Shown here piece after piece: positions 25,272-39,163 of a stretch of 39,163 nt of DNA. Position numbers and translations under genes: made by a program. Positions within the stretch are counted from its first letter, which is position 1, and the number at the start of each line of letters is the position of its first letter. The stretch is from a virus. Taxonomy: Duplodnaviria > Heunggongvirae > Uroviricota > Caudoviricetes. The stretch lies in IMG/VR virus record IMGVR_UViG_2541047942_000002; one strand, 5' to 3'. The notes below the pieces were generated by a model. It was not told where the DNA came from, made no database searches, and saw only the letters and a list, made by a program, of their open reading frames with translations.

Positions 25272-26321
25272 TTACGCCAGTACGCCAATTGCCAGCGCGC
25301 GATCGATAAAACGAAATATCAGCTCCAGTTGGGAGCCATACTTATCTTCAAATGCCACTGTATCCGTATGCAGCTCGTTGTGATGCTTTCTGCACAAAGG
25401 CAACACAAAGAGATCATGTGCTTTTGTTCCCATTCCGCCCTGCCCGTGACCAATCAGATGATGCGGATCGTCGGCTGGCATACCGCAGCAAGCACACGGC
25501 TGTGTCTTAACCCAACGTGTGTATTTCTCCTTAACCCAGCGGCGACGTTTAGGCAGCTTCATGAAAGATTCCGGAGACTCTGGATCAACGGTGATGCTTA
25601 CCACCGTCTTTTCCTGTGGTGATTTTTGTTGCTGGTGGGCGTAAGGCAACGGTGCAAGATTTTTTGTGCGTTGTTTCAATATGCTGGTGGCGGTCTGCTC
25701 TCCCGGTACGATGTCGCTTTCGCGGTACACCGAGCAGATTTTTTCCGCTGGTAATCCCAGCGAACGACGCGATACAGCCTCAGGTAGTGCATCCACCACC
25801 TGATTGCAGACCGCCCACCAGGATAATTCAGCCAAAGATAATTCCCGCTCCTGCGTACCGCTTATTGCGTGACGGATGACGTCAATCACCCATGCTGTCA
25901 GATTTTGTTGAGCAAGCAGCTCCAGTGATTCCGATGTCTGGTCACGCAGTTGGTTGTCGCAGTGCCAGCACAACACCATTGCGCCGGTACCATAACGGTG
26001 AATGACTGTTTCAGTGTGATGGTAATCGCCATTAGGCCACTGGCAGGATGTAACATGACGTAATAGCCAGTCGGACAATGCGCCAACGCCGCCAGCAGCA
26101 CGAATCACCCGTTCGTTACTAAAAAACGGCAGCAATGTTTTGTCTTCCGCCAGCGGCTGGCGAACGGCAGGAACGACTCCGGATGGCAGATTACGCATGC
26201 TTTTTGGTTCCGGTTCCACCAGCACTCGAGGATTATGAAATATCTGTATGGATTCACGGCCCGGCTTAAGGACCACCAGCCCAAGCTCAGGCACCAGAAC
26301 AGGTCTAAGTAATACCCGCAC
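25272..26321 (-). CDS. ydfU: nin-region protein with C-terminal HNH-like zinc-finger nuclease motif
   Basis: 349-aa product from a GTG at ~26319-26321 preceded by GGAGG; C-terminal CACCG...DPHHLIGHG...CRKHHNELH motif. Confidence 0.7.
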   Translation of the reverse strand: MRVLLRPVLVPELGLVVLKPGRESIQIFHNPRVLVEPEPKSMRNLPSGVVPAVRQPLAEDKTLLPFFSNERVIRAAGGVGALSDWLLRHVTSCQWPNGDYHHTETVIHRYGTGAMVLCWHCDNQLRDQTSESLELLAQQNLTAWVIDVIRHAISGTQERELSLAELSWWAVCNQVVDALPEAVSRRSLGLPAEKICSVYRESDIVPGEQTATSILKQRTKNLAPLPYAHQQQKSPQEKTVVSITVDPESPESFMKLPKRRRWVKEKYTRWVKTQPCACCGMPADDPHHLIGHGQGGMGTKAHDLFVLPLCRKHHNELHTDTVAFEDKYGSQLELIFRFIDRALAIGVLA

Positions 26322-26322
26322 G

Positions 26323-26601
26323 TTACCTCCAGATCCGTTGCTGGAAAGTGCGGGACGCACGTGGTGGGCGTTCGGAATAAGGCAGCCTGACAGAGATTAT
26401 CCAGTGCCGATAGTCGAGACTGAGAGCTTTCTTAACCTCGAACCCGCGCCTGCGGTAAGAATGAATCAGCCATTCGGCCTGTTCTGCAGTGCATGGAGGG
26501 TGCTGGAACCATTCAGACTTGAATGCGTGAGAATACCGCCCGTGCGTGCAGGCAAGAACGGGCGAATTATCAGAATTGTAATATTTTGCGTTGCGTGCCA
26601 T
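26323..26601 (-). CDS. hypothetical protein (92 aa), tightly coupled upstream of ydfU
   Basis: ORF-track ORF ending 2 nt before the proposed ydfU start; no recognised homolog. Confidence 0.35.
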   Translation of the reverse strand: MARNAKYYNSDNSPVLACTHGRYSHAFKSEWFQHPPCTAEQAEWLIHSYRRRGFEVKKALSLDYRHWIISVRLPYSERPPRASRTFQQRIWR

Positions 26602-29190: not shown

Positions 29191-30531
29191 TCAATCTATT
29201 TTATCGGGATCAGGCTTCTTTTTAGGTAACTTCGGGGGCTTAACTTGCTGATGACTTTGCGTTCGGCGCGTAAGCCAGGGATGGTCAGCTTTAGATTTAA
29301 CATAGTATTTTGAGCGTAAATCAATACGGGCATTATCCACTCGTTCATGGACACTCTTTTCATCATCCAGTGGTATAGGCTCCGGGCCATCAACATACTT
29401 TTCCCAGCCCAGCGCTTTCCCGTCATACAGAACGTTAATTTCACCGTCAAAGTTCTCACATACAGTAACAACCGAATGCCTAAGTCGATATCCCCGGCCC
29501 TCACTGCGTACCTGAAACGCACTGCTTTTGTACTGGAAAGTGAGATTTTTAGACAGAACGCGCTTCGCCTGTAGGCTGAAGATATAACCCAGTTCCTCTT
29601 CAGAATGGTGCACATCAAGATGAGCATTATCAGTAGTACGAGGCGACGTAGCGAACCGGTTGTTATAGGCTTCAATAAAGGTCGGCAACCATGCATTTGC
29701 TGTTTCAATATCACTGATATTCTGAAGCCGCATTTCTTTGACCAGCCTGTCCTGTAGTGTCTGATTGGCGCGCTCTACCCGCCCTTTTGCCTGCGGGCTG
29801 TTGGCATGGATTGGCTCGATGCCCTGTGTCTTTATCGCACGAGTGAACTGGGTCAGCTCACCTTCCCGCTCTGGGTTATTTACCCTGAATATACTGTGTC
29901 TATCAGAGTAGAGAGCGAGCGGTACGCCATGATCATTAAGGTAACCCCGGAGGGTTTCCATGTAAGCCCGGGTTGTTTCAGCAGGCACAAAACGCAACGC
30001 CATCAACGCACTGGTGGCATCATCAATGAAAACGATCAGTGTACATCTGGGGCCTCGATTTTCAAACCAGTCATGAGGTGAGCCATCAATCTGGATCAGT
30101 TCACCGTAAGATGGTCGTCGCATGCGGCGTTGATATATACGGGCAATTTTACGACGGCGTTCACGCCATAACCCCTCTTCTATCATCCACTTTCTGAGAG
30201 TTTCAACGGATAAAGATAAACCGTGTATCTCGCGCAATTTTTCGCACGCAAACGTAGGTCCAAAATCAGCGTAACGGCCTTTGAGGAGTGAAATTACTGT
30301 TGCTCTGAATTCAGTAGAAAAGGAATTATTAGGATGCTTTCCACGTCGGTGGGAAACCAGACCAGAAGGCCCTTCATTTCTATACCGTTGCACCAGACGT
30401 TTAACCTGCCGAATAGAAATGCCAATGCGTGCCGCAGCTTGTTCCTGAGTAATATGTCGATTAATTGACTCCTGAATAATCTGAAGTCGGTGGAGTTCCT
30501 TATGACTCATCGTAACAGTCTCTTTGATCAT
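29191..30531 (-). CDS. DDE transposase of the retroviral-integrase (rve) superfamily, IS481/IS21-IstA-like, with N-terminal HTH
   Basis: 446-aa ORF with HTH-like N-terminus and an rve-type catalytic core (QIDGSPHDW ... LALYSDRHSIF ... SPQAKGRVERANQTLQD); element ends not resolved. Confidence 0.8.
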   Translation of the reverse strand: MIKETVTMSHKELHRLQIIQESINRHITQEQAAARIGISIRQVKRLVQRYRNEGPSGLVSHRRGKHPNNSFSTEFRATVISLLKGRYADFGPTFACEKLREIHGLSLSVETLRKWMIEEGLWRERRRKIARIYQRRMRRPSYGELIQIDGSPHDWFENRGPRCTLIVFIDDATSALMALRFVPAETTRAYMETLRGYLNDHGVPLALYSDRHSIFRVNNPEREGELTQFTRAIKTQGIEPIHANSPQAKGRVERANQTLQDRLVKEMRLQNISDIETANAWLPTFIEAYNNRFATSPRTTDNAHLDVHHSEEELGYIFSLQAKRVLSKNLTFQYKSSAFQVRSEGRGYRLRHSVVTVCENFDGEINVLYDGKALGWEKYVDGPEPIPLDDEKSVHERVDNARIDLRSKYYVKSKADHPWLTRRTQSHQQVKPPKLPKKKPDPDKID

Positions 30532-32789: not shown

Positions 32790-33197
32790 ATGGAAACAAA
32801 AAATTTAACTATCGGCGAACGCATCAGGTATCGTCGGAAAAACCTCAAACACACCCAAAGGTCTCTTGCTAAAGCCCTGAAAATCTCCCATGTGTCTGTA
32901 TCACAATGGGAACGGGGTGATAGTGAACCTACAGGGAAGAACCTTTTTGCCCTCAGCAAAGTATTGCAATGCTCACCAACATGGATTCTATTTGGCGATG
33001 AAGACAAGCAACCAACACCACCTGTTGAGAAGCCAGTTGCCTTATCCCCCAAAGAACTAGAGCTCCTTGAGCTGTTTAATGCACTGCCAGAATCAGAACA
33101 GGATACCCAGCTCGCCGAAATGCGAGCTCGAGTAAAAAACTTCAATAAACTCTTTGAAGAATTACTAAAAGCCCGTCAGCGGACAAATAAAAGATAA
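32790..33197 (+). CDS. dicA: cI-like HTH repressor DicA
   Basis: 135-aa ORF METKNLTIGERIRYRRKNLKHTQRSLAKALKISHVSVSQWERGDSEPTGKNLFALSKVLQCSPTWILFG... with XRE-type HTH. Confidence 0.9.
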   Translation: METKNLTIGERIRYRRKNLKHTQRSLAKALKISHVSVSQWERGDSEPTGKNLFALSKVLQCSPTWILFGDEDKQPTPPVEKPVALSPKELELLELFNALPESEQDTQLAEMRARVKNFNKLFEELLKARQRTNKR

Positions 33198-33363: not shown

Positions 33364-33519
33364 ATGGATACTATCGATCTTGGCAACAACGAATCTCTGG
33401 TGTACGGCGTGTTTCCAAACCAGGACGGCACGTTCACCGCAATGACGTATACCAAAAGCAAAACGTTTAAAACCGAAAATGGTGCCCGTCGCTGGCTGGA
33501 AAGAAACTCAGGTGAGTGA
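33364..33519 (+). CDS. ydfA: small early-left operon protein YdfA
   Basis: 51-aa product MDTIDLGNNESLVYGVFPNQDGTFTAMTYTKSKTFKTENGARRWLERNSGE from an internal ATG preceded by GAGGT. Confidence 0.7.
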   Translation: MDTIDLGNNESLVYGVFPNQDGTFTAMTYTKSKTFKTENGARRWLERNSGE

Positions 33520-33520
33520 T

Positions 33521-34096
33521 ATGGATTTCGACACAATCATGGAAAAGGCTTACGAAGAATACTTCGAAGGCCTTGCCGAAGGCGAAGAAGCTCTCAGCTT
33601 CAGTGAGTTTAAACAGGCACTCAGAATAAGAATGTGCTCTCACAATGACGCGGAGCACAAATATGAGAAGCAAAATCAGACCGCAGAAAATTTTGTTCTG
33701 GAACCCGGAGAAACGCTTTTCAAAATTCCCGTTACGTGCCCCATTTGCGGTTTTACATCAGAAGAACTTGACGACTCCTGTAACAATCAGGAAACAACCA
33801 AGTATGTCGAAGATGATACCGAGTGCGCACGAAGAACGATTATATCCACGAGTCCAAACTCCAGGACCAATAAATCTCACTATGAGAGGGTGATTAATCC
33901 ACTCCCCCAAACCAATAAAAAAGATGCCGGAGGACAAAAAACCCAATGGAACAACGGGATATCTGTCAAAAAAAGACGTTCCATTAAAGACAAACAACGC
34001 AGCGCCAACAACTGTAAGCGCTTTATACCAGTAATCAATTTTCATGTTCTTAAGCGGATTTATTGGTGGTTGCGACATTGCTTAATGAATCCTTAA
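33521..34096 (+). CDS. YdfB/YdfC-like protein as a single uninterrupted ORF (acidic N-terminus, CPICG zinc-ribbon-like motif, low-complexity basic C-terminus); 3' extent uncertain
   Basis: ATG at 33521 overlapping the ydfA stop (MDFDTIMEKAYEEYFEGLAEGEEALSFSEFKQAL...); a hydrophobic antisense ORF (33758-34078) covers the C-terminal half, so the true end is unclear. Confidence 0.45.
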   Translation: MDFDTIMEKAYEEYFEGLAEGEEALSFSEFKQALRIRMCSHNDAEHKYEKQNQTAENFVLEPGETLFKIPVTCPICGFTSEELDDSCNNQETTKYVEDDTECARRTIISTSPNSRTNKSHYERVINPLPQTNKKDAGGQKTQWNNGISVKKRRSIKDKQRSANNCKRFIPVINFHVLKRIYWWLRHCLMNP

Positions 34097-34355: not shown

Positions 34356-34413
34356 TTTCTGGTGACGTTTGGCGGTATCAGTTTTACTCCGTGACTGCTC
34401 TGCCGCCCTTTTT
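34356..34413 (+). ncRNA. dicF: DicF small regulatory RNA (ftsZ-targeting) with its intrinsic terminator
   Basis: Sequence TTTCTGGTGACGTTTGGCGGTATCAGTTTTACTCCGTGACTGCTCTGCCGCCCTTTTT matches DicF as I recall it; GGCGG...CCGCC stem plus U-tract; located between the ydfB/C-like ORF and dicB. Confidence 0.8.
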
Positions 34414-34582: not shown

Positions 34583-34771
34583 ATGAAAACGTTATTACCA
34601 AACGTTAATACGTCTGAAGGTTGTTTTGAAATTGGTGTCACTATCAGTAACCCTGTATTTACTGAAGATGCCATTAACAAGAGAAAACAAGAACGGGAGC
34701 TATTAAATAAAATATGCATTGTTTCAATGCTGGCTCGTTTACGTCTGATGCCAAAAGGATGTGCACAATGA
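34583..34771 (+). CDS. dicB: cell-division inhibitor DicB (MinC-activating)
   Basis: 62-aa product MKTLLPNVNTSEGCFEIGVTISNPVFTEDAINKRKQERELLNKICIVSMLARLRLMPKGCAQ from the ATG at 34583. Confidence 0.9.
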   Translation: MKTLLPNVNTSEGCFEIGVTISNPVFTEDAINKRKQERELLNKICIVSMLARLRLMPKGCAQ

Positions 34772-34959
34772 ATTCAGCATTTGCGCTTGTTCTGACAGTT
34801 TTTCTTGTTTCCGGAGTGCCAGTTGATATTGCAGTCAGTGTTCACAGGACAATGCAGGAGTGTATGACTGCAGCAACCGAACAGAAAATTCCCGGTAACT
34901 GTTACCCGGTCGATAAAGTTATTCACCAGGATAATATCGAAATCCCGGCAGGTCTTTAA
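34768..34959 (+). CDS. ydfD: small membrane protein YdfD (reported lysis-inducing protein)
   Basis: 63-aa product MNSAFALVLTVFLVSGVPVDIAVSVHRTMQECMTAATEQKIPGNCYPVDKVIHQDNIEIPAGL; ATG overlaps the dicB stop (ATGA); N-terminal TM helix. Confidence 0.8.
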   Translation: MNSAFALVLTVFLVSGVPVDIAVSVHRTMQECMTAATEQKIPGNCYPVDKVIHQDNIEIPAGL

Positions 34960-35052: not shown

Positions 35053-37524
35053 ATGAGTAAAGTCTTTATTTGCGCCGCTATTCCTGACGAACTGGCAACA
35101 AGGGAAGAAGGCGCTGTGGCTGTAGCCACAGCCATTGAAGCTGGCGACGAACGCCGTGCTCGAGCAAAATTTCACTGGCAGTTCCTGGAACATTATCCGG
35201 CTGCTCAGGACTGCGCTTATAAATTTATTGTCTGCGAGGATAAACCTGGCATACCCCGCCCTGCCCTCGATTCATGGGATGCTGAATATATGCAGGAAAA
35301 CCGCTGGGATGAGGAGTCTGCTTCTTTTGTCCCGGTTGAGACTGAATCCGATCCGATGAACGTCACTTTTGACAAGCTGGCCCCTGAAGTACAGAACGCT
35401 GTCATGGTTAAGTTCGACACATGTGAAAACATCACCGTTGATATGGTTATTAGCGCACAGGAATTGTTGCAGGAAGACATGGCAACATTCGACGGACATA
35501 TCGTTGAAGCGTTGATGAAAATGCCAGAAGTTAACGCCATGTATCCGGAGCTTAAGTTGCACGCCATTGGGTGGGTTAAGCATAAATGTATTCCTGGTGC
35601 TAAATGGCCCGAAATTCAGGCAGAGATGCGCATCTGGAAAAAACGTCGCGAAGGTGAACGCAAGGAAACCGGAAAATACACGTCTGTTGTTGATCTCGCC
35701 CGCGCCAGAGCCAATCAACAGTACACTGAAAATTCAACAGGAAAAATCAGCCCGGTCATTGCTGCCATTCATCGCGAATACAAGCAGACATGGAAAACAC
35801 TGGATGACGAACTGGCCTACGCTCTCTGGCCTGGTGATGTGGATGCCGGAAACATTGACGGCAGCATCCATCGCTGGGCAAAAAAAGAAGTTATCGACAA
35901 CGACCGCGAAGACTGGAAGCGTATCTCGGCATCAATGCGCAAACAGCCTGATGCCCTTCGCTACGACCGCCAAACTATTTTTGGCCTTGTCCGTGAGCGT
36001 CCGATCGACATTCACAAAGATCCCGTAGCACTGAACAAATATATCTGCGAATACCTGACGACAAAGGGCGTGTTTGAGAATGAAGAAACAGACCTGGGCA
36101 CTGTTGATGTTCTCCAGTCATCAGAAACACAAACTGATGCAGTGGAAACTGAGGTATCTGATATCCCAAAAAATGAAACCGCGCCGGAAGCTGAACCATC
36201 TGTAGAGCGTGAGGGGCCGTTCTATTTCCTCTTCGCAGATAAGGACGGAGAAAAATACGGTCGCGCAAACAAACTTTCTGGTCTGGATAAGGCACTGGCT
36301 GCTGGCGCCACTGAAATCACAAAAGAAGAATATTTTGCCCGAAAAAATGGCACATACACGGGCTTACCGCAAAATGTAGATACCGCTGAAGATTCAGAAC
36401 AACCAGAGCCGATAAAAGTTACCGCTGACGAAGTAAACAAAATTATGCAGGCAGCCAATATCAGCCAGCCTGACGCCGATAAGTTGCTTGCTGCATCACG
36501 TGGTGAATTTGTTGAAGGGATTAGTGACCCGAATGATCCGAAATGGGTTAAGGGGATCCAGACCCGCGATTCTGTGAACCAGAACCAGCATGAATCGGAA
36601 CGGAACTACCAAAAAGCGGAACAAAACAGTCCAAATGCGTTACAAAACGAGCCAGAAACGAAACAGCCTGAACCAGTGGCGCAACAGGAAGTGGAAAAAG
36701 CCTGCACCGCCTGCGGTCAGACCGGCGGCGGCAACTGCCCTGATTGTGGCGCGGTGATGGGCGACGCAACATACCAAGAAACATTCGATGAAGAGTATCA
36801 GGTTGAAGTTCAGGAAGATGATCCGGAGGAAATGGAAGGCGCTGAACATCCACACAAGGAGAACACTGGCGGCAATCAGCATCACAATAGCGATAATGAA
36901 ACTGGCGAGACGGCAGATCACCCAATTAAGGTGAACGGTCATCACGAAATCACATCCACCAGCAGGACGTGTGACCATCTAATGATCGACCTTGAAACCA
37001 TGGGAAAAAATCCTGATGCCCCGATCATCTCAATAGGTGCAATATTTTTCGATCCGCAAACCGGAGATATGGGACCGGAATTTAGTAAGACTATCGATCT
37101 GGAAACTGCTGGCGGAGTCATTGATCGGGACACCATTAAATGGTGGCTTAAGCAATCACGCGAAGCGCAATCTGCCATTATGACCGATGAAATCCCGTTA
37201 GATGATGCACTGTTACAATTGCGGGAATTTATCGACGAAAACTCCGGTGAATTTTTTGTTCAGGTTTGGGGAAATGGAGCCAACTTCGACAACACGATTT
37301 TGCGCCGTTCATACGAACGGCAGGGGATCCCCTGCCCGTGGCGTTACTACAACGATCGCGATGTACGCACAATCGTTGAGCTGGGGAAAGCCATAGACTT
37401 CGATGCCAGAACGGCTATTCCATTCGAAGGTGAGCGCCATAATGCACTTGATGACGCCCGTTACCAGGCAAAATACGTTTCAGTTATCTGGCAAAAACTG
37501 ATCCCGAGTCAGGCTGATTCTTAA
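35053..37524 (+). CDS. ydfE: full-length YdfE-like multidomain protein: N-terminal region of unknown function, central CxxC...CxxC zinc ribbon, C-terminal DEDDh (DnaQ-like) 3'-5' exonuclease domain
   Basis: 823-aa ATG-initiated ORF; C-terminal motifs Exo I MIDLETMG, Exo II WGNGANFDNTIL, Exo III ERHNALDDARYQAKY; zinc ribbon CTACGQTGGGNCPDCG; located between ydfD and xis. Confidence 0.8.
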   Translation: MSKVFICAAIPDELATREEGAVAVATAIEAGDERRARAKFHWQFLEHYPAAQDCAYKFIVCEDKPGIPRPALDSWDAEYMQENRWDEESASFVPVETESDPMNVTFDKLAPEVQNAVMVKFDTCENITVDMVISAQELLQEDMATFDGHIVEALMKMPEVNAMYPELKLHAIGWVKHKCIPGAKWPEIQAEMRIWKKRREGERKETGKYTSVVDLARARANQQYTENSTGKISPVIAAIHREYKQTWKTLDDELAYALWPGDVDAGNIDGSIHRWAKKEVIDNDREDWKRISASMRKQPDALRYDRQTIFGLVRERPIDIHKDPVALNKYICEYLTTKGVFENEETDLGTVDVLQSSETQTDAVETEVSDIPKNETAPEAEPSVEREGPFYFLFADKDGEKYGRANKLSGLDKALAAGATEITKEEYFARKNGTYTGLPQNVDTAEDSEQPEPIKVTADEVNKIMQAANISQPDADKLLAASRGEFVEGISDPNDPKWVKGIQTRDSVNQNQHESERNYQKAEQNSPNALQNEPETKQPEPVAQQEVEKACTACGQTGGGNCPDCGAVMGDATYQETFDEEYQVEVQEDDPEEMEGAEHPHKENTGGNQHHNSDNETGETADHPIKVNGHHEITSTSRTCDHLMIDLETMGKNPDAPIISIGAIFFDPQTGDMGPEFSKTIDLETAGGVIDRDTIKWWLKQSREAQSAIMTDEIPLDDALLQLREFIDENSGEFFVQVWGNGANFDNTILRRSYERQGIPCPWRYYNDRDVRTIVELGKAIDFDARTAIPFEGERHNALDDARYQAKYVSVIWQKLIPSQADS

Positions 37525-37596: not shown

Positions 37597-37848
37597 ATGA
37601 GCGAAGTAATCATGATTGTCTCTCCCGGCAAATGGGTATCCGAAGAGCAGTTAATTGCGCTGAAAGGAATAAAAAAAGGTACGTTAAAAAAGGCCCGGGA
37701 AAAATCGTTTATGGAAGGAAGGGAATATAAGCATGTCGCTCATGACGGTATGCCATGGGATAACAGTCCATGCTTTTACAACCTGGAAGAAATTGATCGC
37801 TGGATTGAGCGCCAGGCATCAGCGAGACCAAGACGTCATCTTACTTGA
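37597..37848 (+). CDS. putative excisionase / small DNA-binding protein
   Basis: 83-aa ORF directly upstream of the integrase; position-based call. Confidence 0.55.
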   Translation: MSEVIMIVSPGKWVSEEQLIALKGIKKGTLKKAREKSFMEGREYKHVAHDGMPWDNSPCFYNLEEIDRWIERQASARPRRHLT

Positions 37849-37867
37849 CTAAAAGCCACACTAACTA

Positions 37868-39163
37868 ATGAGAGAAGTTGAAATGAAATATCCGACAGGC
37901 GTGGAAAACCATGGAGGGAAATTACGTATCTGGTTTGTTTATAAAGGCGTAAGAGTCAGGGAAAATCTGGGGGTTCCTGACACAGCAAAAAACAGGCGCG
38001 TTGCAGGTGAACTACGCTCCTCTGTTTGTTACGCAATAAAAACTGGTGTTTTCGACTATGCAAAACAGTTTCCCTCCTCACGCAATCTGGAAAAATTTGG
38101 TGAGGCCCGACAAGATTTAACCATAAAAGAACTGGTTGAAAAATTTCTGGCACTGAAAGAAACTGAAGTCGCCAAAACATCACTCAACACATACCGTGCC
38201 GTCATCAAAAATATCCTGAGCATAATCGGTGAAAAAAATCTTGCCTCATCGATTAATAAAGAAAAATTACTGGAGGTTCGTAAAGAGCTACTGACTGGAT
38301 ACCAGATCCCCAAAAGTAACTATATTGTTACACAACCAGGGAGATCGGCTGTAACTGTAAATAATTACATGACAAATCTTAACGCCGTGTTCCAGTTTGG
38401 TGTTGATAACGGTTACCTGGCAGATAATCCGTTTAAGGGGATCTCGCCATTAAAGGAATCAAGAACCATTCCGGATCCTCTTTCGCGGGAGGAATTTATC
38501 CGTCTTATCGATGCGTGCAGAAATCAGCAAGCAAAAAATTTATGGTGTGTTTCTGTTTATACTGGCGTTCGCCCTGGTGAGCTGTGTGCACTTGGATGGG
38601 AGGACATAGATCTGAAAAATGGAACAATGATGATCAGGAGAAATTTAGCAAAAGACCGTTTCACGGTACCAAAAACACAGGCGGGAACCAATCGGGTCAT
38701 TCATCTTATTAAGCCAGCAATCGACGCTCTCCGGAGTCAGATGACATTAACGAGACTGAGCAAAGAGCATATCATTGATGTTCACCTCAGAGAGTATGGC
38801 AGAACAGAAAAACAAAAATGCACCTTTGTTTTTCAACCTGAAGTGTCAGCGAGAGTAAAAAATTATGGTGACCATTTTACCGTTGACTCAATAAGGCAGA
38901 TGTGGGACGCAGCGATAAAACGTGCCGGACTCCGCCATCGAAAATCATATCAGTCGAGACATACTTATGCCTGCTGGTCGCTGACAGCTGGTGCTAACCC
39001 GGCATTTATAGCAAACCAGATGGGCCATGCAGATGCGCAAATGGTATTTCAGGTATACGGAAAATGGATGTCTGAAAACAATAATGCACAGGTAGCTTTG
39101 TTAAATACACAGTTAAGCGAGTTTGCCCCAACCATGCCCCATAACGAAGCAATGAAAAATTAA
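37868..39163 (+). CDS. intQ: tyrosine site-specific integrase (complete; stop codon is the last three bases of the window)
   Basis: 431-aa ORF with C-terminal tyrosine-recombinase catalytic region (R...HxxR...Y: YTGVRPGE, SRHTYACW, MGHADAQMVFQVYGKW); terminal position in the prophage next to xis. Confidence 0.85.
   Translation: MREVEMKYPTGVENHGGKLRIWFVYKGVRVRENLGVPDTAKNRRVAGELRSSVCYAIKTGVFDYAKQFPSSRNLEKFGEARQDLTIKELVEKFLALKETEVAKTSLNTYRAVIKNILSIIGEKNLASSINKEKLLEVRKELLTGYQIPKSNYIVTQPGRSAVTVNNYMTNLNAVFQFGVDNGYLADNPFKGISPLKESRTIPDPLSREEFIRLIDACRNQQAKNLWCVSVYTGVRPGELCALGWEDIDLKNGTMMIRRNLAKDRFTVPKTQAGTNRVIHLIKPAIDALRSQMTLTRLSKEHIIDVHLREYGRTEKQKCTFVFQPEVSARVKNYGDHFTVDSIRQMWDAAIKRAGLRHRKSYQSRHTYACWSLTAGANPAFIANQMGHADAQMVFQVYGKWMSENNNAQVALLNTQLSEFAPTMPHNEAMKN

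Follow-up and report, generated by a model that had tools for sequence, protein, structure and literature searches.

The DNA analysed here, hereafter the window, is a stretch of 39,163 nucleotides (nt) from a virus of the Caudoviricetes (IMG/VR record IMGVR_UViG_2541047942_000002), and the gene in question is a full-length YdfE-type gene on its + strand. The predicted product joins a scaffold related to the non-catalytic part of RecE from the Rac prophage to a C-terminal domain of the DEDDh exonuclease type. An earlier note, drawn from the letters of the DNA alone, had described an intact open reading frame (ORF) of 823 amino acids (aa) at 35053-37524. This ORF is confirmed exactly: its 823 codons open with ATG, and a GAGG Shine-Dalgarno sequence lies 10 nt 5' of the start. 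The gene and its segments are listed below, with AlphaFold confidence given as pLDDT (predicted local distance difference test) and selection as dN/dS (ratio of nonsynonymous to synonymous substitution rates).

35053-37524, + strand: full-length YdfE-type gene (823 aa; RecE-like scaffold and DEDDh exonuclease), from the ORF list.
35053-35349, + strand: N-terminal segment, residues 1-99 (pLDDT 30-42; dN/dS 0.06-0.17).
35350-35676, + strand: helical domain D1, the YdfE-type N-terminal module, residues ~100-208 (pLDDT about 97).
35758-36102, + strand: helical core D2, residues ~236-350, corresponding to RecE ~262-373 (pLDDT about 97; dN/dS 0.11-0.14).
36205-36366, + strand: small α/β domain D3, residues ~385-438 (pLDDT 90-96; dN/dS 0.05-0.07).
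36472-36919, + strand: module shared with recE, residues ~474-622, with two helices, zinc ribbon and acidic linker (blastn, BLASTP).
36970-37521, + strand: DEDDh 3'-5' exonuclease domain (Rv2179c-like/DexA-like), residues ~640-823 (Pfam, alignment, Foldseek).

Residues 640-823 belong, as assigned by profile and motif, to the DEDDh superfamily and to Pfam family PF16473 (Rv2179c-like), and are predicted to form a 3'-5' exonuclease. The Pfam model is matched along its full length with a high score (residues 642-813 against model positions 2-177 of 177; E 2.4e-67; 226.5 bits against a cutoff of 27). Three DnaQ-like motifs had been proposed in the last ~180 residues, and all are located there: DLET at 646-649, NGANFD at 741-746 and HNALDDA at 796-802. 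D646 and E648 constitute motif I, D746 motif II, and H796 and D801 the Hx4D motif III of the 'h' subtype; these five residues are invariant in a MAFFT alignment with T4 DexA and five stand-alone homologues. AlphaFold2 models residues 640-820 with confidence (pLDDT about 85-93). In a Foldseek search of the PDB, T4 DexA (8kel) ranks first (E 1.4e-8), followed by RNase T and the oligoribonucleases, and DexA, RNase T and REXO2/Orn are all matched at a probability of 1.00, with an RNase H-like α/β fold. DexA is also the sole sequence match in the PDB, a search in which Rv2179c gives none. The DEDD fold and the conserved catalytic residues, the two points on which the earlier note had said its assignment could fail, are both recovered.

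By sequence and fold, the C-terminal domain is closest to DexA, a DNA 3'-5' exonuclease. Both proteins are phage-encoded and keep the DEDDh catalytic residues (DexA structures 8kel/8ken), but their identity is about 26-28% and the domain here lacks the surface insertions of DexA. In its virulent phage, DexA stands alone as a protein of 227 aa; the domain here forms the end of an 823-aa scaffold protein in a temperate phage. The founder of the Pfam family, Rv2179c, is a small mycobacterial RNA exonuclease; the domain described here is, by PDB sequence search, nearer to DexA, and it is fused to a RecE-type scaffold.

The ~600 residues ahead of the nuclease had been described as being of unknown function, but they are no orphan sequence. 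BLASTP aligns residues 262-627 to Rac RecE 278-592 (E 3e-63), with near-identity from about residue 470 to 627 (RecE 450-592), a section including the zinc ribbon and acidic linker, and the similarity stops just ahead of the two unlike nuclease domains. Gene nt 1420-1867 match recE nt 1360-1765 at 78% (blastn). The NCBIfam RecE equivalog NF007259 is matched over residues 246-623 (model 271-600) at 281 bits, far below its cutoff of 1269, and the local Pfam copy gives no match in residues 1-641. Rac RecE itself is composed, according to Pfam, of PF06630 at residues 2-178 and the PD-(D/E)XK domain DUF3799 at 615-850. On these alignments, the non-catalytic region of Rac RecE has its homologue in residues ~236-630. 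The slot before xis/int had been likened to that of phage recombination genes, and Rac indeed carries recE-recT there; since RecE's own non-catalytic part is homologous to the region upstream of the nuclease, this positional analogy is a true homology with a swapped nuclease.

The AlphaFold model consists of compact scaffold domains linked by low-confidence stretches. The N-terminal residues 1-99 are constrained despite their low model confidence, as the listed dN/dS indicates, and are part of the 'YdfE_N' module also carried by homologues with other C-termini. D1 has no significant structural relative in the PDB or BFVD and is swapped for the PF06630 Exonuc_VIII module in RecE-type members. 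The ~110-aa D2 core, compact in the model over residues ~240-345, occurs in 43 of the 43 matched long homologues (local jackhmmer), RecE included; neither a sequence nor a fold relative of it is found in the PDB, and the broad D2-core alignment is too divergent for a pattern to be extracted. D3, with a strand-strand-helix-strand-helix topology, is the segment under the strongest constraint. It is followed by a helix pair at residues 458-500 (pLDDT 60-72) and by the zinc ribbon, whose CxxC...CxxC motif had been noticed ahead of the nuclease and lies at residues 551-565 as CTACGQTGGGNCPDC (C551/C554/C562/C565). The ribbon (residues 550-566) is modelled with moderate confidence (pLDDT ~59) and is present in Rac RecE but in only 6 of 48 long representatives of the family, which makes it an optional module. 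Phages ON470612, ON470619, ON470583 and ON470580 (H18-H21) match only gene nt 1361-2472, at 93-98% identity, which points to a second mosaic junction at about residue 454-474, ahead of the zinc-ribbon module; the label on these records is 'exodeoxyribonuclease VIII'.

Compared with Rac RecE, the YdfE-type protein shares the early-left operon position after cell-division inhibitor genes and before xis/int, a similar size (823 against 866 aa), the homologous core and the zinc-ribbon/acidic-linker module. The nuclease differs, being DEDDh (3'-5') here and PD-(D/E)XK/DUF3799 (5'-3') in RecE; DUF3799 is matched in Rac RecE and not in the YdfE-type protein (Pfam, local phmmer). The N-terminal ~235 residues form another module, PF06630 being absent here, and the next gene is Xis, not an adjacent and usually overlapping recT. 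The C-terminal PD-(D/E)XK domain suffices for RecE function. The YdfE-type protein is not RecE, though the central scaffold is common to both, and the 'exodeoxyribonuclease VIII' labels on phage records are misleading because PD-(D/E)XK, PF06630 and RecT are absent and the NCBIfam score falls below cutoff.

The absence of a recT/bet-like partner, also pointed out earlier, extends well beyond this locus. None is present among the operon genes; Pfam detects no annealase family in the early-left operon of the window and no annealing domain in the YdfE-type protein. The gene order is kilR-ydaE-racC-recE-recT-ralR-rcbA-xis-int in Rac and dicB-ydfD-gene-xis-int in the window and its relatives. Scaffold ORFs were classified across 186 loci (155 unique sequences) and counted where downstream DNA sufficed, a RecT-family gene ≤2 kb downstream being scored as a partner. 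RecT lies downstream of 67/67 unique PD-(D/E)XK variants, of 0/58 unique DEDDh variants and of 0/5 proteins with a third type of tail, described below; no exception occurs among the loci counted, and L006, L008 and L004 are individual loci that fit the rule. In L008, the gene for a protein with a YdfE-type N-terminus and a PD-(D/E)XK domain (P0132) overlaps the next gene, whose product matches Pfam RecT (E 2e-36). A protein with a RecE N-terminus and a DEDDh domain (P0129) lies in a Rac-like prophage in the order kilR-ydaE-gene-xis-int, without recT. The absence of RecT is thus a rule for DEDDh variants and is not specific to the window. Lambda Exo/Bet/Gam and other two-component recombinases resemble the present system in genomic slot and early expression timing; they differ in that here the annealase partner is missing, the predicted polarity is opposite and the fold is unrelated.

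P0132 and P0129 exemplify a modular family. An exhaustive HMMER search with residues 1-641 against 1.84 billion representatives (E <= 1e-3) returns only 247 proteins, many of them fragments, and the modules of the long members were mapped by local phmmer. An initial scan of viral contigs had yielded 80 near-identical loci, of no use for diversity. Two alternative N-terminal modules (YdfE-type and RecE-type) and at least four alternative C-termini are present: DEDDh, RecE-type PD-(D/E)XK, a tail of ~260 aa that has no Pfam assignment and a fourth tail. Every combination of a YdfE or RecE N-terminus with a DEDDh or PD-(D/E)XK domain occurs. In a scan of one genome per species, all relatives come from Enterobacterales (Escherichia, Shigella, Pantoea, Erwinia, Enterobacter, Citrobacter and Symbiopectobacterium). 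The family is a modular scaffold of prophages of this order, joined to different C-terminal domains.

The third tail, ~260 aa in place of the nuclease, is exemplified by loci L007 and L099-L102 and by proteins P0212, P0135, P0130 and P0240. It contains an invariant KKSLTDAxKKALSxLGF motif and gives sub-threshold Pfam Rad52_Rad22 matches in 9 of 11 members (best E 0.0014) and no PDB profile match. With hhalign only the motif aligns, over 22 columns at 4% probability, to RAD52 140-161. The tail may be a Rad52-like annealase fused to the RecE scaffold, a likeness that is not confirmed. These proteins carry the PHROGs label 'exonuclease', and in L007 the gene following the third-tail protein encodes a member of the Sipho_Gp157 family. 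The fourth tail stands on a YdfE-type scaffold (P0127, P0262 and P0267; phrog_26058) and has no Pfam match. Stand-alone DEDDh homologues also occupy the slot directly before xis-int. One of them, the 189-aa P0113 from a Salmonella prophage (L186, 5001-5570), is 57% identical and directly follows a 432-aa gene with a PF04447 dATP/dGTP diphosphohydrolase domain, a neighbour that hints at a tie to nucleotide metabolism.

Around the YdfE-type gene, the window has the order DicA-like repressor, YdfA (DUF1391), 205-aa ORF, DicF, DicB, YdfD, YdfE-type gene, Xis and Int, with the following assigned features.

32790-33197, + strand: DicA/CI-like repressor, at the head of the early-left region (Pfam HTH_3 and Phage_CI_repr; synteny with dicA in L001 and L002).
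34357-34408, + strand: DicF small RNA (Rfam RF00039, 76.7 bits, E 4e-16).
34583-34959, + strand: dicB and ydfD (DUF1482), directly upstream of the gene (Pfam DicB E 9.6e-40, DUF1482 E 4.4e-25).
37597-39163, + strand: excisionase (DUF1233) and tyrosine integrase, directly downstream (Pfam; order kept in L001 and L009-L013).

The K-12 dicBF transcript begins at the DicA-repressed promoter dicBp and spans ydfABC, dicF, dicB and ydfDE (PMC10448788). In the window, neither a + strand sigma-70-like site nor a convincing terminator is found between the upstream operon genes and the YdfE-type gene, and the 93-nt gap that follows ydfD contains no significant terminator structure (z = -0.36). The YdfE-type gene is the last cargo gene of a DicA-repressed, dicBF-type early-left operon. 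Because of this terminal position in a repressor-controlled operon, the protein would be produced on derepression or infection and not in a quiescent lysogen. The dicBF-type operon is complete in the window. The 205-aa ORF between ydfA and DicF (33479-34096, + strand; phrog_35040) has no Pfam match and occupies the place of ydfB and ydfC in K-12 Qin; at its start it overlaps the ydfA ORF, and related genomes annotate a 191-aa product.

Full-length copies of the gene (>=80% coverage) are present in 3537/5426 complete E. coli genomes (about 65%), the median number of matching places in a complete genome being two, and the isolated plaque-forming phages HannyBb, PhiR42_1 and Tritos carry it at 99-100% identity. 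Against two E. albertii copies, dN/dS is 0.24-0.30 overall and lowest in residues 1-99, D2 and D3. Purifying selection acts over the whole gene, poorly modelled segments included. Given its prevalence, its presence in isolated phages and its low dN/dS, the gene is real and in use.

Disrupted copies exist as well. The note had described K-12 ydfE as a fragment truncated by an insertion sequence, and this is borne out: in the Qin prophage of a K-12-type genome only gene nt 1-767 are kept (first ~256 codons, 99.9% identity), abutting a truncated IS2 transposase and then a truncated integrase. Another copy is interrupted by IS1203, and a third is split into three ORFs (E. coli locus L188, 737-3127) of 456, 157 and 183 aa, colinear with residues 1-453, 465-591 and 644-822. 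Because of this split, some 'stand-alone' 183-aa entries (P0066) are to be regarded as fragments of a disrupted gene.

The gene had been called the least characterised of the window. Experimentally this stands, since a 2023 paper names DicF, DicB and YdfD as the only operon products that are characterised (PMC10448788); as to annotation it does not, the gene being extremely common and already named. Databases call it 'exonuclease' or '3'-5' exonuclease' and model its domains. The newer Pfam families YdfE_N (PF27430) and YdfE_C (PF27432), together with Rv2179c-like, are recorded for the exact protein (precomputed, scores not given), PHROG 2082 'exonuclease' covers it end to end, and the index of the assembly collection has the exact 823-aa protein in 1649 blocks. 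What was not found in the literature searched is the swap of the RecE nuclease module, the association of RecT with PD-(D/E)XK forms only, and the further effector tails.

The favoured reading, with a probability of roughly 0.55, is that the YdfE-type protein is a DexA-like 3'-5' DNA exonuclease on a RecE-type scaffold that has a role in lytic growth and is independent of an annealase. The 5'-3' PD-(D/E)XK domain of RecE would have been replaced by a 3'-5' exonuclease of the DexA/Rv2179c DEDDh type; the domain has a complete two-metal DEDDh site and is most like T4 DexA. In lytic DNA metabolism, the enzyme would shorten DNA from its 3' ends, be it linear DNA, 3' tails or oligonucleotides, possibly in the breakdown of host or competitor DNA or in the trimming of replication or recombination intermediates. 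The scaffold (D2, D3, the optional zinc ribbon and the acidic linker) may target or regulate whichever effector is attached, a task presumed to be the same as in RecE. As co-occurrence indicates, the protein would act without a dedicated annealase, and so would not be a two-component recombinase of the RecET/Red type.

Several points count against this reading. The choice of DNA over RNA as substrate is drawn only from the similarity to DexA and the RecE scaffold, and PF16473 is named after an exoribonuclease. The RecT counts are non-independent because the sample consists mostly of closely related E. coli prophages. The role of an annealase-free 3'-5' exonuclease in a lambdoid phage is not established, and the scaffold is without an assigned function even in RecE (review PMC11611040). 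Structure searches of the scaffold gave no functional clue, and the literature searched on ydfE, Rv2179c and the RecE N-terminus holds no functional study of the full-length protein.

A prophage defence nuclease of the HREX/EcD type, degrading the hydroxymethylcytosine DNA of superinfecting T-even phages and protecting the lysogen, appears unlikely. The short E. coli DexA homologue EcD is reported to digest T4 DNA containing 5-hydroxymethylcytosine (5hmC) and not unmodified DNA, and to confer T4 resistance from a plasmid (PMC12153337, a 2025 paper). Compared by description only, the DEDDh domain here resembles EcD in being DexA-like, compact and without DexA's extra surface loops, and DicB from the same operon is reported to be protective against phage infection (PMC6832061). 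EcD is nevertheless a different, short and stand-alone protein, beginning MIDTET according to its primers, and is absent among the 120 closest homologues of the DEDDh domain; its 20-mer reverse primer gave one chance match in viral contigs, without a DEDDh gene. For the two DexA residues proposed to recognise 5hmC, the MAFFT alignment, weak in this region, shows no conservation: it sets W152 against Y766, also aromatic but in a column with C, W or V in homologues, and D169 against A780, with D782 nearby. A quiescent lysogen would also make little of the protein, because the gene belongs to a DicA-repressed operon and has no promoter-like site of its own. PADLOC gives only a weak generic DEDDh match, and the RecE scaffold is left unexplained. 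The scaffold disfavours a 3'-5' exoribonuclease like Rv2179c that trims RNA 3' ends (the dicBF transcript, DicF or host RNAs), since it is common to a DNA recombination nuclease and the DEDDh domain alternates with a DNA exonuclease at the same junction. That function would agree with the Pfam annotation as a 3'-5' exoribonuclease domain, with RNase T and the oligoribonucleases as structural neighbours after DexA, and with an operon shared with DicF, a small RNA matured by processing. It is quite improbable, the closest relative by sequence and fold being the DNA exonuclease DexA, and DicF maturation being credited to RNase III and RNase E (PMC10448788).

Recombination or end joining by the one protein would have the 3'-5' activity expose complementary 5' tails, with host factors or the scaffold itself annealing them in place of RecT. 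The operon slot and scaffold are the same as those of RecE, an enhancement of linear-linear recombination is reported for full-length RecE but not for its nuclease domain on its own (PMC11611040, citing Fu et al. 2012), and the third branch with its weakly Rad52-like tail suggests a scaffold dedicated to recombination effectors. This is still distinctly unlikely: the YdfE-type protein has no detected annealing domain, the Rad52 assignment of the third tail stays below threshold (best E 0.0014; hhalign 4%), and the literature searched offers no experimental precedent. A functionless remnant, in which a partly deleted recE-recT region was fused to a neighbouring exonuclease gene and hitch-hikes in prophages, is very improbable. 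The mosaic junctions do fall on module boundaries, and the copies disrupted in K-12, by IS1203 and in L188 would suit such an origin. However, purifying selection extends over the full length, the catalytic residues are invariant, plaque-forming phages and about 65% of complete E. coli genomes carry intact copies, and the same architecture is seen again on an independent N-terminal type (P0129).

A bolder reading is tentative and, on balance, unlikely. The RecE N-terminal region may be a portable platform for interchangeable DNA-end effectors, its DEDDh form acting as a self-sufficient, RecT-independent device for end processing or recombination. The effectors would be a PD-(D/E)XK 5'-3' nuclease with RecT, a DEDDh 3'-5' nuclease alone, and possibly a Rad52-like annealase alone. 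If so, the DEDDh form would resect in the reverse direction from all phage recombination exonucleases that have been characterised.

RecET is in standard use for recombineering and direct cloning, yet for the roughly 600 residues of RecE outside the catalytic domain the enhancement of linear-linear recombination is the sole function assigned. Part of this region is a conserved, independently folding scaffold that is paired with nucleases of opposite predicted polarity, and the natural domain swaps offer a direct route to separating scaffold from nuclease function. The YdfE-type gene is moreover one of the commonest E. coli prophage genes that are still uncharacterised, often in several copies, including in lineages rich in Stx phages; whatever activity it has, be it on DNA ends, on modified DNA or on RNA, would therefore bear on prophage induction, phage-phage competition and genome mosaicism.

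Three further features of the window lie outside the early-left operon. A 446-aa transposase-like ORF (helix-turn-helix and rve_3; 29191-30531, - strand) adjoins the replication and immunity genes, and L001 has an annotated partial ISEsa1-family transposase at the matching position. By the Q-like antiterminator region, a 362-aa DUF968 protein (25272-26360, - strand) shows weak matches to HNH and RecA-dependent nucleases; being nuclease-like, it could affect phage recombination capacity. Between 19001 and 24000, the GC content falls to 0.35-0.44, while the structural region has about 0.55-0.60; this segment probably carries tail-fibre or cargo genes of foreign origin.

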